IMG/VR virus record: IMGVR_UViG_3300026549_000024
Strand: one strand, 5' to 3'
DNA length: 32,852 nt
Source: a virus
Positions 27,255 through 30,285 of the stretch are shown one piece after another. Every line of letters begins with the position of its first letter. Positions within the stretch are counted from its first letter, which is position 1. A program made the translations under genes and the position numbers. The notes beneath the pieces are model-generated. The model saw nothing but the letters and a program-made list of their open reading frames with translations, ran no database searches and had not been told where the DNA came from.

Positions 27255-28370
27255 ATGTCAAAGTTTTTCGTTTATGATGAATCAATGACAAACACGAAGG
27301 CGAAGATCACGACGGCGAAGCTTGCGGCAATGTCGGACATTATCGCTTCGGAAAAGAAGTTCCTGAATGCGGGCGACGCTTCAACGCCGAACGCTCTGAC
27401 ACTTGACGCCGACGTTCTGATCGCCGTCGGGAATTCGGTATTCAGGACAGCAGAAACAGAACTGACGGTTTCAAATCTGGACACAGGAACAGGCTTCACG
27501 GTTGGATCCGATTATTATGTTTATTGTTGTGATCCTTCGTCCGGTTCAGATACGTCGGACGTAGACGAAGAATATAAAATATCCTTGAATTCGACATATC
27601 CGGACGGATACACGGCGGAAAATTCAAGGAAGATCGGCGGTTTTCATTATGGAATCGTTCGCGTAACGGACGACACGGGAAAAGCGGTCGGAACAGATTC
27701 GAAAGAATACGGCACGGCGTGGACGTCAAACGTTTACACCGGCATTCTTCCGGCTTCTGTATGGACTGTACTTCACAGGCCAAAATGCGAAGATCCTTCC
27801 GGCATGGTTTACGTGTCCGGCGGTTTATGGGCTGACATTTACCTTGATTCAGACGACGGAAACGACGGTTTAGCGTCCGTTTATAACGCGACGCCGATCA
27901 CGGGAACGGAATCGTTGAACTGGTATATAGCAGTTGAAAAAGCCCGTCGCGTCGGAAAGCGTCTTCCGTCTTATGCTGATTTTATTCAGTATGCGTATGG
28001 ATCGCCTGAAGGAACAGATTCAGGAAATACGAACGCATGGTCAGCAACAGGAAACACGGCGCGTCAGGTAACGGGCTACGTCAAGAACGCCGTTTCTGCC
28101 GTTGGCTGCCGCGATTGCGTCGGTAATGTTTGGGAATGGCTTGACGAACTTTGCCTTGATCCTACGGCTACGGCGTGGAATTGGCAGGACGTGTTAGGAT
28201 CCGGATTCGGTGACGCTTATATTCCTTCACAAACAGCGCTTCACGCGCTGTTTGCGGGCGGCGCTTGGGACAACGGGATTCACGACGGCGCCCGCGCGGT
28301 CGATGCGAGCCGTTACCCGTGGCACGTGAACACGCACGTCGGCGTCCGGTGCGTCTGTGACTCGCGTTAA
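27255..28370 (+). CDS. DGR target protein (Mtd-like receptor-binding candidate) with C-terminal CLec/FGE-sulfatase-like variable domain
   Basis: 371 aa. GNVWEW motif upstream of the VR. The last 42 codons are the VR, which matches the TR apart from adenine-site changes. Confidence 0.85.
   Translation: MSKFFVYDESMTNTKAKITTAKLAAMSDIIASEKKFLNAGDASTPNALTLDADVLIAVGNSVFRTAETELTVSNLDTGTGFTVGSDYYVYCCDPSSGSDTSDVDEEYKISLNSTYPDGYTAENSRKIGGFHYGIVRVTDDTGKAVGTDSKEYGTAWTSNVYTGILPASVWTVLHRPKCEDPSGMVYVSGGLWADIYLDSDDGNDGLASVYNATPITGTESLNWYIAVEKARRVGKRLPSYADFIQYAYGSPEGTDSGNTNAWSATGNTARQVTGYVKNAVSAVGCRDCVGNVWEWLDELCLDPTATAWNWQDVLGSGFGDAYIPSQTALHALFAGGAWDNGIHDGARAVDASRYPWHVNTHVGVRCVCDSR
28238..28362 (+). repeat. 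DGR variable region (VR)
   Basis: 125-nt gap-free alignment to 28919-29043 with 11 mismatches, all at TR adenines. The invariant G/C-rich 3' end ggcgtccggtgcgtctgtgact is IMH-like. Confidence 0.9.
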
Positions 28371-28379
28371 TCCGGATCA

Positions 28380-28402
28380 GCGGCGCGCGGGAGCGCGGCC
28401 GC
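28380..28402 (+). promoter_or_regulatory. GC-rich hairpin downstream of the VR (DGR target-recognition hairpin candidate)
   Basis: 5-bp stem cgcgc/gcgcg with a GGGA loop (28389-28392). Extended by 4 more G-C pairs across a single bulge. Starts 18 nt after the VR end. Confidence 0.5.
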
Positions 28403-28837
28403 ATGGGGTCAGGAATGGAAGAAGAGAAGAAAGAATATAAAGCGAAGTATGAAGCGCCGGATTTCCTGAAGGATACCGGCGCGGATTACGCGCACACAAA
28501 AGCACATCAGGCCGCGTACGATTTCAATATATACATTCATAACAAGATGAAATCGCTTCCGAAGTATGAGAAATTCACGCTTCAGAAGGAAATCAGGGAA
28601 ACGATTGACGTTATCCTTGACGAAATTGAACTGTATGAAGTAACGAAATCAGTATCGCATTTATACACGGCCGACAGAATGAAAAGGCGGTTAATGCGAA
28701 AAATAAGAACGTGTCACGATCTGAAATATTCGGCAATGAATACAGACGTGACATTCTATTGCGCGAAGCAGATCGCGATCATTGGTTCACTTGTCGGCGG
28801 CCTGATAGAGAAAGAAAAGAAGAAACGGGGTTCCTGA
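28403..28837 (+). CDS. avd: DGR accessory variability determinant (Avd-like four-helix-bundle protein)
   Basis: 144 aa, basic and helical. FNIYIHNKMKSLPKYEKFTLQKEIRETIDVILDEI matches the ..fPK.Ek..L..qir.. pattern of the Avd/23S-IVS family. Sits between the VR and TR. Confidence 0.75.
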   Translation: MGSGMEEEKKEYKAKYEAPDFLKDTGADYAHTKAHQAAYDFNIYIHNKMKSLPKYEKFTLQKEIRETIDVILDEIELYEVTKSVSHLYTADRMKRRLMRKIRTCHDLKYSAMNTDVTFYCAKQIAIIGSLVGGLIEKEKKKRGS

Positions 28838-28918
28838 AAGTTATGATTATACATTAACAGGAAAAACGTTTGATTCTATAAGGGCGGCTGTTAATTCGAA
28901 TTTTGCAACGGACGGCAG

Positions 28919-29043
28919 GCTTCACGCGCTGATTGCGGGCGGCAATTGGAACAACGGGATTCACGACGGCGCCCGCGCGGTCAATGCGAACAATTACCCG
29001 TGGAACGTGAACACGAACATCGGCGTCCGGTGCGTCTGTGACT
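28919..29043 (+). repeat. DGR template repeat (TR)
   Basis: Noncoding copy of the VR, rich in AAY codon-equivalents. Followed by a 186-nt spacer before the RT start. Confidence 0.9.
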
Positions 29044-29229
29044 ATGGACATTTTAGAACGTTGCGGATCCGTCCGCGCGTCAAGGATTCATATATTTACC
29101 ATGAGTCAGACGGCCGTAAAGCGATCCAGAAACGGATCGCCCTGATCGGGTGAAAATCCCGACGAAGTTCAAAAAGCACCGGCCGAAAAGCAACGAAAGG
29201 GAAATTCGCGAAATGCGGAACGGGCAAAC

Positions 29230-30285
29230 ATGAAAACAGAAAAGCATTTACTGCCGTCGATCTGCACGAATGAGAATGCAGAAGAAGCATATCGACAGGC
29301 GCGCGAGTGCAAAAGATACCGGCCGGAAGTAATGCGGTTCGAACAGAACCGGGAAGAATATCTTCTTTCAGCGATCGAAGACGTTCAAACATTAAATTAC
29401 AATCCGGGCCGGTATTTTATATTCAAAGTATGGGAACCGAAAGAACGCGTGATCATGGCGCTGCCGTTTTACGACAGAGTGATTCAGCACATGATCGTCA
29501 ATATAATCGAACCGACGTTTGAACGACGCTTTATTTATCAATCTTACGCTTGCAGGAAAGAAAAGGGCGTTCATAAAGCTTCGGACGCACTTTCACGTCG
29601 TTTATATGAATTATGCGTCGTTCAGGGAAAGAACATTCACGCGATATCGGGCGACATTCACAATTATTTCGGATCCGTGGATCATAACGCCCTGAAAACA
29701 GAAATTCGGCGTTACATATCAGACAAAGAAGTTCTGATTCTGATTGACAGGATAATCGACGAAAACGGGATTTATCCGGAAGGCGTCGGGATACCGGTCG
29801 GGAACCTGACTTCACAGCTATTCGCAAATGTTTACCTGAATATATTCGATCAGTACGTGAAACACGTATTGAAGGAACCGGATTATTTTCGATATATGGA
29901 TAATTTCATAATATTGAAAGAAGAAAATCCTTCGTATCTTTATAACGAACTGGAAACGGCCGGGACGTTCCTGAATACAAATCTGAAGCTTGAACTGAAT
30001 CCAAAGTCGACGGTTGTTTCAGCAAAGAACGGAATTGATTTCGTCGGATATCGGCATTTTCCGGGATTTACAATCATGCGGAAATCGTCAACGCGCCGCC
30101 TGACAAAGCTGATTCATGCGTTTGAATCGGGCGAAGTAGATGAAGAACTGTTTGACAGATCCGTCGAAAGCAGGATCGGACACATGAAACACGCGGACAC
30201 GGCAGGAATGATTGAAGAATACAGAAGGAAAGTAAAACAGGCAAAAGAATCCCGAACACTGCCGATTATAACGGAAACAGCATAA
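29230..30285 (+). CDS. rt: DGR reverse transcriptase (catalytic box reads YMDN)
   Basis: 351 aa. EPKERVI, FYDRVIQH, ISGDIHNYFGSVDH, the DGR-typical GxxxSQ (VGNLTSQLFAN), motif C RYMDNFIIL, and FVGYR. Confidence 0.9.
   Translation: MKTEKHLLPSICTNENAEEAYRQARECKRYRPEVMRFEQNREEYLLSAIEDVQTLNYNPGRYFIFKVWEPKERVIMALPFYDRVIQHMIVNIIEPTFERRFIYQSYACRKEKGVHKASDALSRRLYELCVVQGKNIHAISGDIHNYFGSVDHNALKTEIRRYISDKEVLILIDRIIDENGIYPEGVGIPVGNLTSQLFANVYLNIFDQYVKHVLKEPDYFRYMDNFIILKEENPSYLYNELETAGTFLNTNLKLELNPKSTVVSAKNGIDFVGYRHFPGFTIMRKSSTRRLTKLIHAFESGEVDEELFDRSVESRIGHMKHADTAGMIEEYRRKVKQAKESRTLPIITETA

Follow-up and report, generated by a model that had tools for sequence, protein, structure and literature searches.

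A BPP-1-type DGR with a YMDN reverse transcriptase, very probably functional, in a phage of gut Clostridia

In the window, by which we mean the whole 32,852-nucleotide stretch of viral DNA analysed here, we find a cassette that is very probably a functional BPP-1-type DGR, carried by a temperate siphovirus whose hosts are gut Clostridia (probably Lachnospiraceae). The anatomy of the cassette, the homologies of its proteins, variation restricted to adenines both inside single genomes and from one genome to another, and covariation in its RNA were all observed directly. Its genes stand in the order mtd-avd-TR-RT, downstream of Dit/Tal tail genes, which is the canonical Bordetella-phage order (target-avd-TR-RT) that the first-pass annotation of this DNA had recognised. 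The features on which the analysis draws are the following, with positions in the window.

27255-28370, + strand: target gene, a Mtd-like tail protein of 371 aa with a putative receptor-binding role, whose C-terminal CLec/FGE-type fold holds the VR
28238-28362, + strand: VR, codons 328-370 of the 371-codon target gene, an ungapped 125-nt repeat of the TR
28341-28362, + strand: G/C-rich invariant 3' end of the VR, IMH-like, equal to TR 29022-29043
28380-28402, + strand: target-site DNA hairpin/cruciform with a 9-bp GC stem and a GGGA (GRNA) loop at 28389-28392
28403-28837, + strand: avd, accessory variability determinant, 144 aa, from profile matches and predicted fold
28881-28899, + strand: conserved motif upstream of the TR, AGGGCGGCTGT followed by TAATTCG, with complementarity to the spacer
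28919-29043, + strand: TR, non-coding, with 27 adenines
29044-29229, + strand: spacer (Sp) of 186 nt between the TR and the RT gene
29058-29080, + strand: spacer stem-loop with a UCCG tetraloop, from a 24-lineage alignment and folds
29104-29113, + strand: invariant spacer block AGTCAGACGG, whose AGTCA is complementary to the TGACT at the TR 3' end
29121-29140, + strand: lineage-specific spacer hairpin
29146-29162, + strand: spacer stem-loop
29230-30285, + strand: DGR RT, 351 aa (Pfam RVT_1; PHROG 1423, 3e-106)
29797-29817, + strand: RT motif 4, VGNLTSQ
29893-29904, + strand: RT motif C, YMDN, residues 222-225, with the Asn codon AAT at 29902-29904
30316-30336, + strand: terminator-like hairpin and T-run after the RT gene, from a consensus scan

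Adenine-specific variation in the repeat pair

A repeat finder returned the VR and TR as a 125-nt direct repeat of 91% identity without gaps. Comparing the two column by column, we observed 11 mismatches, and in 11 of 11 a TR adenine is replaced by T, G or C in the VR; with 27 adenines in the TR, the hypergeometric probability of this arising by chance is P = 7e-9. Nine codons change from TR to VR (I333F, N337A, N339D, N350D, N352S, N353R, N357H, N361H, I362V). The TR contains 17 diversifiable codons, nine of them AAY, and a stop codon is unreachable by changes at adenines. Similarity collapses directly past 28362/29043, where the flanks are unrelated. The first-pass annotation, working by hand, had given the same gapless alignment, 11 mismatches each at a TR adenine, about 27 TR adenines, the same nine codon changes and an abrupt end of homology, and the computed comparison reproduced every one of these points. 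When the TR with each adenine set to N was used as a search pattern, the only matches in the genome were the VR and TR copies, and no second VR was found elsewhere; the cassette therefore comprises one VR and one TR.

The repeat ends in 22 nt, GGCGTCCGGTGCGTCTGTGACT, that the two copies share exactly and that have no further occurrence in the window. Their sole adenine (28360) is changed in 0 of 43 family TR/VR pairs, as would be expected if these 22 nt form the primer duplex or the IMH; adenines upstream of them are mutated in 3-77% of the 43 pairs (most in 15-77%). The earlier description of this G/C-rich end as IMH-like holds as regards invariance, and the end is also unique in the window, but it shows no internal IMH/IMH* difference: we found no such mismatches inside the repeat, and the cues for directionality must consequently lie in the flanks.

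A GC hairpin with a GGGA loop, noted before as lying 18 nt past the VR, was located at 28380-28402. With its 9-bp stem, which has one bulged G on the 3' arm, it fits the consensus published by Guo et al. 2011 (PMC3240598), in which a GC-rich stem of 7-10 bp carries a GRNA loop of 4 nt and lies 4-34 bp past the VR. The folding energy is not significant relative to shuffled sequences (z = -1.5), and it is conservation together with covarying stems in related elements, not free energy, that argues for the hairpin: 14 of 15 related lineages have one at the same position with a GRNA loop and different complementary stems. These stems were analysed sequence by sequence, the MAFFT alignment being 1 nt out of register in some rows.

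Polymorphism confined to TR-adenine positions, which had been proposed as a check on reads from the source sample, was found among public metagenome alleles used in their place. In 16 public target alleles, 34% of sites differ in residues 328-363 as against 0.38% in residues 1-327; the differences fall almost solely in TR-adenine codons, and the residues lie within the sets reachable from those codons. The exceptions to the adenine rule are a T->G change at 28252 in five of the 16 alleles and variants at codon 338. Among four genomes that come from different samples and are nearly identical, with only 7-10 differences over the 3.6-5 kb around the VR, 25 VR positions vary, 23 of which are TR adenines (23 of the 27 in the TR). 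The VRs differ between these genomes, yet the TR is the same in the window and genome L001 and one base off in L002 and L004. Taken between public assemblies rather than within the source population, these comparisons indicate that VR diversification is ongoing.

Proteins and RNA of the cassette

The target matches Pfam mtd_2nd (PF21916; 5e-29, 101 bits against a cut-off of 24.6) and FGE-sulfatase (4e-7), as well as the tail protein family PHROG 11262 (1e-73), and phmmer aligned its residues 49-369 with Bordetella Mtd (1YU0-1YU4) at E = 8e-19. The 76 C-terminal residues alone gave no phmmer match in the PDB, so that the full-length query was needed. An AlphaFold (AF2) model of pLDDT 92.5 superposes on Mtd 1yu2 with a TM of 0.72 over the full length (Foldseek, E = 1e-23), and the 11 positions at which the crystallised Mtd variants differ from one another all coincide with variable positions in the target. 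Sequence and predicted fold thus support a full-length Mtd homolog. The GNVWEW signature that had suggested an FGE/CLec fold is present at residues 290-295, within the FGE-sulfatase match, and the Mtd-like model bears out the fold itself. As stated previously of fibre/baseplate genes, Dit, Tal-like and fibre-like genes precede the target, a context in which it would bind the host receptor as a trimeric tail-fibre tip protein; by diversifying it, the phage could change its receptor specificity.

The small ORF that follows was expected to belong to the Avd (23S-IVS) family, and its profile matches agree: PHROG 3206 'Avd protein of DGR' at 1e-13, NCBIfam DivGenRetAVD (NF033474) at 1e-10 (41.6 bits, under the cut-off of 80) and Pfam bAvd (PF22296) at 4e-7 (30.9 bits, under the gathering cut-off of 40). 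A profile of the family matched only bAvd in the PDB (4DWL, 8UB7_B). The AF2 model (pLDDT 86) has four long helices and superposes on bAvd 4DWL/8UB7 with TMt 0.78-0.90 and an rmsd of 1.4-1.9 Å. Profiles and model together support an Avd with a four-helix bundle of the 23S-rRNA-IVS-protein type.

An alignment of the spacer from 24 lineages, analysed with RNAalifold, has compensatory changes in 11 of 29 pairs. For two of its stem-loops we made a formal covariation count, in which 10 of 12 pairs have double changes and 87% are paired in register, compared with at most 52% when the pairing is slid; folds of the individual sequences agree with the stem-loops. The two DGR-RNA duplexes were found by inspection as complementary, covarying sequences. 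One would join the TR 3' end to the invariant spacer block. In the other, the first 11 nt of the upstream motif are complementary to spacer 29110-29117 plus 29141-29143, and the partners covary between lineages (GGGGTAGCTGT/ACGGCTATCCC, GGGGAAACTGT/ACGGTTTTCCC); by analogy, the upstream motif may be the equivalent of one strand of the BPP-1 avd:Sp 'cPRT stop' duplex (bioRxiv 10.1101/2023.10.23.563531). RNAalifold paired the invariant blocks differently, joining GACT to an AGT further downstream and AGTCAGA to an AT-rich stretch; invariant columns cannot discriminate between such pairings, and we prefer the BPP-1-like one because adjacent positions covary. The post-TR stem-loop, the TR:Sp duplex and the upstream:Sp duplex can accordingly be mapped, on the support of covariation and analogy, onto the BPP-1 DGR RNA, with a putative priming site and stop duplex. 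At the gathering threshold Rfam assigned no family anywhere in the window, and no curated DGR RNA model applies. The hairpin at 30316-30336 is probably the end of the avd-TR-RT transcript, although terminator-like sites in the region were no more numerous in the consensus scan than in shuffled sequences; promoter scan sites were likewise no more frequent than in shuffles.

By analogy with BPP-1, we propose that the avd-TR-spacer-RT region would be transcribed and that the RT-Avd complex would bind the structured spacer RNA. The last five TR bases, UGACU, would pair with spacer AGUCA and prime cDNA in cis, and synthesis would run toward the TR 5' end, bounded by the upstream-motif:spacer duplex, with the RT faithful at C, G and U and placing random bases opposite A. 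The cDNA would then take the place of the VR at the 3' terminus of the Mtd-like gene, a replacement directed by the common G/C-rich 22 nt and the downstream GC hairpin with its GGGA loop. The predicted outcome is the randomisation of 17 codons on the ligand-binding face of the C-type-lectin fold, free of stops, with about 2.5e15 variants.

The YMDN motif and the source of variation

As anticipated from the sequence, the RT belongs to the DGR clade. Its best solved relative is the Bordetella bRT (8UB7, 2e-45; the next class, retron or group II RTs, reaches 7e-14), and its VGNLTSQ, common to 118 of 121 homologs, is a form of the (I/L/V)GxxxSQ in domain 4 by which the clade is defined (PMC3521204). 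It has no YxDD box, however: motif C reads YMDN, whereas both aspartates of YxDD were '100% conserved' in a survey of 155 DGR RTs (PMC3521204). We take YxDD as a marker of catalytic competence and not as a criterion for DGR classification. The asparagine, N225, corresponds to the second aspartate, D216 in bRT, which is one of its three catalytic aspartates (bioRxiv 10.1101/2023.10.23.563531).

In an NJ tree we observed that the seven YMDN proteins among the 120 closest RT relatives form one clade, with 50-63% identity, in which the asparagine, the other RT motifs and the derived residues S260 and T281 are retained. Pairwise identities had suggested that YMDN is polyphyletic among close relatives, a reading overruled by the tree and the shared derived residues. 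Further out, YMDN recurs in five representatives, scattered as singletons. The N225/S260/T281 state occurs in 0 of the 79 species-representative loci in which motif C was found (80 fetched), and in a scan of IMG/VR the YMDN state was confined to the window lineage. Within that lineage, all 14 RT sequences covering motif C have Y[M/I]DN and 11 are intact at 351 aa; two others, of 317 aa, start at an internal methionine, and in one genome the RT gene is split into 117- and 202-aa pieces.

The observed variation could in principle have other sources. Plain duplication or gene conversion, after which the copies diverged by random point mutation with no retroelement involved, would explain that a 125-nt repeat exists and nothing more, and we give it practically no credence: the mismatch spectrum, with every difference on the adenines of one copy, already refutes it. 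Moreover, the TR copy is non-coding and invariant between genomes, the VR copy is hypervariable, and a DGR-type RT and Avd adjoin the repeat.

It is also conceivable, though in our judgement unlikely, that YMDN has killed the cassette's RT and that the VR diversity either was supplied in trans by a YMDD RT-Avd, as from a co-resident DGR prophage, or is older than the substitution. The D->N change does fall on a catalytic-triad position. Spacer blocks such as that at 29104-29113 are invariant family-wide, so that a heterologous RT-Avd might recognise the window RNA, and some Clostridia genomes contain two related DGRs (e.g. L098/L102 and L097/L110). Changes in the RT within the lineage are, in addition, mainly nonsynonymous (synonymous/nonsynonymous differences of 0/3 for window-L001, 1/2 for window-L002 and 1/5 for L001-L002), and constraint on the enzyme may have been relaxed to some degree. 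Against a dead RT stands the retention of Y[M/I]DN throughout the lineage, mostly in intact proteins, and conservation of this kind across the diverged seven-member clade argues that the RT is not a dead gene. Adenine-specific VR change is seen in three independent YMDN members, namely the window lineage, P0039 (three contigs with the same RT protein and TR and different VRs) and P0052, and YMDN members cannot be told from their YMDD relatives by the share of adenines that are mutated (0.47 vs 0.46) or by substitution spectrum (chi-square p = 0.24). Asparagine at the second aspartate also has a natural counterpart in the YVDN RTs of nematode belpaoviruses (Bel/Pao), apparently intact retroelements, which, being eukaryotic LTR retroelements of unrelated function and distant sequence, are a precedent for tolerance of YxDN only.

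From VR variation and the mutation spectrum, then, the YMDN RT appears functional. We hypothesize, with reasonable but incomplete confidence, that a monophyletic YMDN sub-clade, also marked by T260S and K281T, carries out adenine-specific mutagenic retrohoming at normal output, and we infer that the YMDN enzyme itself, not a helper, does the copying.

Relation to known DGRs and significance

The cassette has the gene order of the BPP-1 DGR (mtd-avd-TR-brt), and its target is a full-length Mtd homolog with variable residues at the same 11 aligned positions. Its Avd matches bAvd in fold, and among solved structures bRT stands nearest to its RT. Past the VR both elements have a GC hairpin whose loop is GRNA, and both spacers have a stem-loop directly past the TR, a TR:Sp duplex with A-G behind it, and an upstream:Sp duplex next to that. 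The cassette differs in that its proteins are ~25% identical to Mtd and roughly 40% to bRT, and in lacking both the (GC)14 tract and IMH/IMH* mismatches inside the repeat. A purine is bulged in the hairpin, which begins 18 nt past the VR; the 186-nt spacer contains the extra hairpin at 29121-29140, motif C is YMDN rather than YMDD, and the host is a Gram-positive gut anaerobe and not Bordetella. Treponema TvpA (2Y3C) and Thermus TaqVP (5VF4) likewise have their VR on a C-terminal FGE/CLec-type fold, but they match the target only in part (TM 0.24-0.36), lack the N-terminal and second domains of Mtd and are not phage tail proteins.

The element is a member of a known and large family, the Mtd-type DGRs of gut Clostridia/Lachnospiraceae prophages, one of which, from Eubacterium rectale, was depicted by Guo et al. 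2011 (Fig. 5, PMC3240598). The layout recurs in over 60 related loci, whose mismatches are likewise A-only. In family members the VR is ~125-128 nt long and its start precedes that of the TR by ~500-690 nt (681 in the window), the TR-RT gap is in most loci ~160-215 nt, as in the window, RT identity is 55-67%, and the conserved RNA blocks are the same; the window stands apart in its minority sub-clade with N225 (YMDN), S260 and T281. Relatives of the cassette were found only in metagenome, IMG/VR and MAG data, and blastn in distant mode with 26800-30400 gave no match among 50,697 GenBank phage records. An exact terminal overlap of 127 nt (1-127 = 32726-32852) supports a circular genome, in keeping with the earlier statement that the phage genome is closed. 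An IS1634-family insertion lies in the endolysin gene of this genome.

As a DGR, the cassette is conceptually nothing new; it is a clean, fully resolvable example of an abundant gut-phage family of tropism-switching systems. Three RNA elements are backed by covariation in the family alignment, and each has its counterpart in the cryo-EM structure of the Bordetella bRT-Avd-RNA complex: the stem-loop past the TR, the primer block with A-G behind it, and the duplex of upstream motif and spacer. This correspondence favours a conserved mechanism of priming and termination in Bacillota phages. If our reading of YMDN is true, the sub-clade would provide the first natural departure from a box reported as invariant among DGR RTs. 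DGR cDNA synthesis would then not require the counterpart of bRT D216, a position that might rather serve to adjust metal use, rate or fidelity. YMDN is fixed in a lineage from which 16 VR alleles have been sampled and is conserved across a deep clade; it amounts to a natural experiment on which catalytic carboxylates are needed, the clade supplies natural D/N pairs for testing, and the question is directly testable in existing E. coli or in vitro reconstitutions.

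The cassette and its target protein

A repeat finder run over 26500-31000 returned a sole long direct repeat, in which 28238-28362 aligns with 28919-29043 over 125 nt at 91% identity and without gaps. By scripted comparison the two copies differ at 11 positions, at each of which the downstream copy has A and the upstream one T, G or C; because 27 of the 125 bases of the downstream copy are A, the probability that 11 random mismatches would all land on A is 7e-9. The final 22 nt show no difference, and the likeness breaks off sharply on either side. The computed alignment therefore bears out the 11 adenine-only mismatches, the invariant 3' end and the abrupt end of homology described in the first-pass annotation, and its nine changed codons were recovered exactly, with the listed products. 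When every A of the template repeat (TR) is replaced by N, the pattern matches only the variable region (VR) and the TR itself in the 32.8-kb window, which thus holds one VR and one TR. The TR has 17 diversifiable codons, nine of which are AAY; no stop codon can be reached from it, and approximately 2.5e15 protein variants are allowed.

Features of the element and its surroundings (coordinates on the + strand)
2-2238: IS1634-family element, 2,237 bp (32727-32852 are the same bases via the terminal overlap), without counterpart in the relative L001
26802-27239: 145-aa ORF, directly 5' of the Mtd-like gene
27255-28370: target gene, Pfam mtd_2nd (5e-29) and FGE-sulfatase
28238-28362: VR (codons 328-370 of the target)
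28380-28402: hairpin, starting 18 nt past the VR, GCGGCGCGC-GGGA-GCGCG[G]CCGC
28403-28837: avd (Pfam bAvd, NCBIfam DivGenRetAVD, PHROG, family profile, four-helix model)
28919-29043: TR
29058-29080: stem-loop directly 3' of the TR, UCCG tetraloop, one flipped base
29104-29113: invariant primer-like block AGTCAGACGG, starting AGTCA, then G-A
29121-29140: extra 7-bp hairpin, GCGATCC-AGAAAC-GGATCGC, splitting the spacer strand of a proposed upstream:spacer duplex
29146-29162: second spacer stem-loop, from the 24-lineage alignment
29230-30285: reverse transcriptase (RT), closest solved relative bRT (8UB7, 2e-45)

Residues 49-369 of the target align with the Bordetella phage major tropism determinant, Mtd (1YU0-1YU4; E = 8e-19). 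An AlphaFold model built with 46 homologs in the input (pLDDT 92.5) fits Mtd from end to end (TM 0.72, E = 1e-23), while other DGR variable proteins and FGE/EgtB match it only partially; the FGE/CLec-type signature noticed in the first pass is recovered by Pfam, in a protein modelled with the Mtd fold. Among the five crystallised Mtd variants, 11 positions are variable (344, 346, 347, 350, 357, 359, 360, 364, 366, 368 and 369), whose aligned equivalents in the window are residues 337, 339, 340, 343, 350, 352, 353, 357, 359, 361 and 362. The TR codon for each of the 11 contains A, and each of them varies in the window lineage. We also observed that several 90%-identity clusters of Mtd homologs have thousands of distinct members, far above the counts of their RT partners (8,367, 12,503 and 9,648 in P0124, P0155 and P0164); such huge clusters are a database-scale footprint of DGR hypervariation.

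The RT matches bRT thirty orders of magnitude better than it matches retron-type or group II intron RTs, and its motif VGNLTSQ is the (I/L/V)GxxxSQ signature of DGR RTs (PMC3521204), so that its proposed place in the DGR clade stands. For Avd the profile searches were divided: the protein scores below the cut-offs of Pfam bAvd (30.9 bits against 40) and NCBIfam DivGenRetAVD (41.6 against 80), and it matches the PHROG family 'Avd protein of DGR' at 1e-13, while a profile from 17 family members has Bordetella Avd as its only match in the whole PDB. Despite the sub-threshold curated scores, these four independent lines (Pfam, NCBIfam, PHROG and PDB profile) agree, at the level of sequence, on a probable Avd. 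The predicted structure (pLDDT 86), a four-helix bundle, fits bAvd to within 1.4-1.9 Å.

Genes for Dit, a Tal-like minor tail protein and a fibre-like protein lie 5' of the cassette; holin and endolysin genes lie 3' of it, with a serine integrase further on. The 145-aa ORF has no match in Pfam or PHROG, is kept at the same position in relatives (L005 377-814, L008 2731-3135) and may encode a fibre assembly or adaptor protein. The window begins and ends with an exact 127-nt direct repeat (1-127 = 32726-32852), as circular contigs from an assembler with k = 127 typically do, and the true genome is 32,725 bp long; the phage genome had been called closed, and this terminal overlap makes the assembly circular. 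The IS1634-family element has a transposase ORF (166-1911), is bounded by 16-bp inverted repeats (TGTGAACTTCCTTTGA) and has duplicated 5 bp of its target, GTTTC (32722-32726 and 2239-2243). The insertion hits the endolysin gene at its 3' end and shortens it, relative to L001, from 452 to 431 codons.

Variation among public genomes

Diversification was assessed on public assemblies, that is, between samples and not within one. L001, a 32.4-kb contig from another sample, carries a 99% relative of the window RT; the two genomes have identical TRs and differ at 30 positions over 9.67 kb, 10 of which fall in the 125-nt VR. When the near-identical contigs L002 and L004 are included, the four genomes have 25 variable VR positions, 23 of which are TR adenines (23 of the 27 adenines are affected), while the flanking 3.6-5 kb contain only 7-10 differences. 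Of the 24 members of the target protein's 90% cluster, the 15 listed were analysed together with the window; 15 of these 16 sequences are distinct, since P0409 is identical to the window. Site differences amount to 0.38% in residues 1-327 and 34% in residues 328-363, and the residues observed lie inside the sets reachable from the TR A-codons. The polymorphism at TR adenines for which the first pass had proposed a test within the source sample is present here between samples.

Three observations concern changes of other kinds. Position 28252 (second base of codon 333), where the TR has T, is G in five of the 16 public VR alleles, so that residue 333 is Cys, Gly or Arg; among these alleles is that of L001, which has the same TR as the window. 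The G could be a relic of an earlier VR, spared near the 5' edge by partial retrohoming, or it may be a recurrent non-A error beside a mutated A. At L002:3719 and L004:2905 (window 28948, TR codon 338 TGG) the TR reads TGT and the VR still TGG (Trp), and residue 338 is Cys or Leu in other cluster alleles, a pattern that suggests TR point mutations copied to the VR at times. In L005 (1824-1946), a contig of the P0039 lineage, the VR is 1 nt shorter than the TR (GTGGACGTG against GTGGAACGTG), which cuts the target ORF to 356 codons; the deletion reflects a sequencing error or else a faulty product of retrohoming.

Target-site hairpin and spacer RNA elements

The hairpin with a GGGA loop reported 18 nt past the VR is unremarkable in folding energy by itself; it recurs at the equivalent site in 14 of 15 related lineages, with stems of 8-12 bp that are different yet complementary and with GAAA, GGAA or GGGA loops. 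It fits the published consensus (Guo et al. 2011, PMC3240598), in which a GC stem of 7-10 bp, capped by a GRNA loop, lies 4-34 bp past the VR. The 3' arm usually has a single bulged purine (14/15 lineages; window 28393-28402, equivalents L006-L087) while the stems differ, a feature not found in the passages of that article that were searched.

The 186-nt spacer between TR and RT is highly structured. Across 24 aligned lineages its two stem-loops jointly have compensatory changes in 10 of 12 pairs, and are 87% paired as against at most 52% with partners slid. The AGTCA of the primer-like block is complementary to the final five TR bases; the next bases, ACGGCCGT and, beyond the lineage-specific hairpin, CCT, complement a conserved motif that precedes the TR (28881-28891), and these partners covary across lineages. 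That hairpin is found in the window, L006, L008, L011, L013 and L016 and is missing in others; the sole window/L001 difference within it, 29140 C to T, retains the closing pair as G-U. The arrangement is the same as in BPP-1, whose RNA has an Avd-binding stem-loop after the TR and a TR:Sp (spacer RNA) duplex that is followed by G57 and adjoins the avd:Sp duplex that stops cDNA synthesis (bioRxiv 10.1101/2023.10.23.563531). By this analogy, we infer the corresponding priming nucleotide and a stop function for the upstream:spacer duplex. None of 43 TR/VR pairs has a change at the A located three bases from the end of the TR; adenines farther upstream are mutated in 3-77% of pairs, all but one in 15-77%. 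The untouched A is as expected if the last TR bases belong to the primer duplex or IMH.

The YMDN motif of the RT

Motif C of the window RT reads RYMDNF, with YMDN at residues 222-225 (29893-29904) and the Asn codon AAT at 29902-29904. The Asn occupies the position of bRT D216, part of the catalytic triad D138/D215/D216, of which D138 and D215 adjoin Mg2+ in the cryo-EM structure (bioRxiv 10.1101/2023.10.23.563531); both aspartates were reported as 100% conserved in a survey of 155 DGR RTs (PMC3521204). The window RT and its 120 closest homologs comprise 114 YMDD and seven YMDN proteins. YMDN occurs in 0/79 species-representative genome loci with motif C found, and an IMG/VR scan showed it only in the window lineage; a broader tree has five further YMDN representatives, more distant and scattered. 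Neither YMDN nor YxDN turned up in connection with DGRs in a full-text literature search, which did yield a precedent: nematode belpaovirus RTs are naturally YVDN.

The seven proteins read as one clade, not as scattered origins: a neighbour-joining tree groups all of them together, and they share S260 (T in 111/111 others) and T281 (K or R in 102/111 others).

Alternatively, the YMDN enzyme could be dead and a related prophage could supply the activity in trans: spacer blocks are common to the whole family, some genomes have two DGRs, and RT changes inside the lineage are mostly nonsynonymous. Such rescue fits poorly with the deep conservation of the YMDN gene. The clade has diverged to 50-63% identity with the Asn and all other RT motifs retained, and Y[M/I]DN is present in 14/14 sequences covering the motif in the window RT's 90% cluster, the lineage that has the 16 VR alleles. 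P0039, the second YMDN member, is represented by three contigs with identical RT protein and TR and three different VRs. YMDN and YMDD relatives have similar fractions of adenines mutated (0.47 and 0.46) and A-to-G/C/T spectra that are no different (p = 0.24). In P0052, the third member, 10/10 mismatches are A-specific, and adenine-specific VR change was seen in all YMDN members examined. Most parsimoniously, then, the YMDN enzyme is active.

The element is a DGR of BPP-1 architecture, one member of a very large Mtd-type family in prophages of gut Clostridia, mostly Lachnospiraceae, and its layout is nothing new. The YMDN sub-clade is the one point that a specialist might find surprising, and it is quickly testable.
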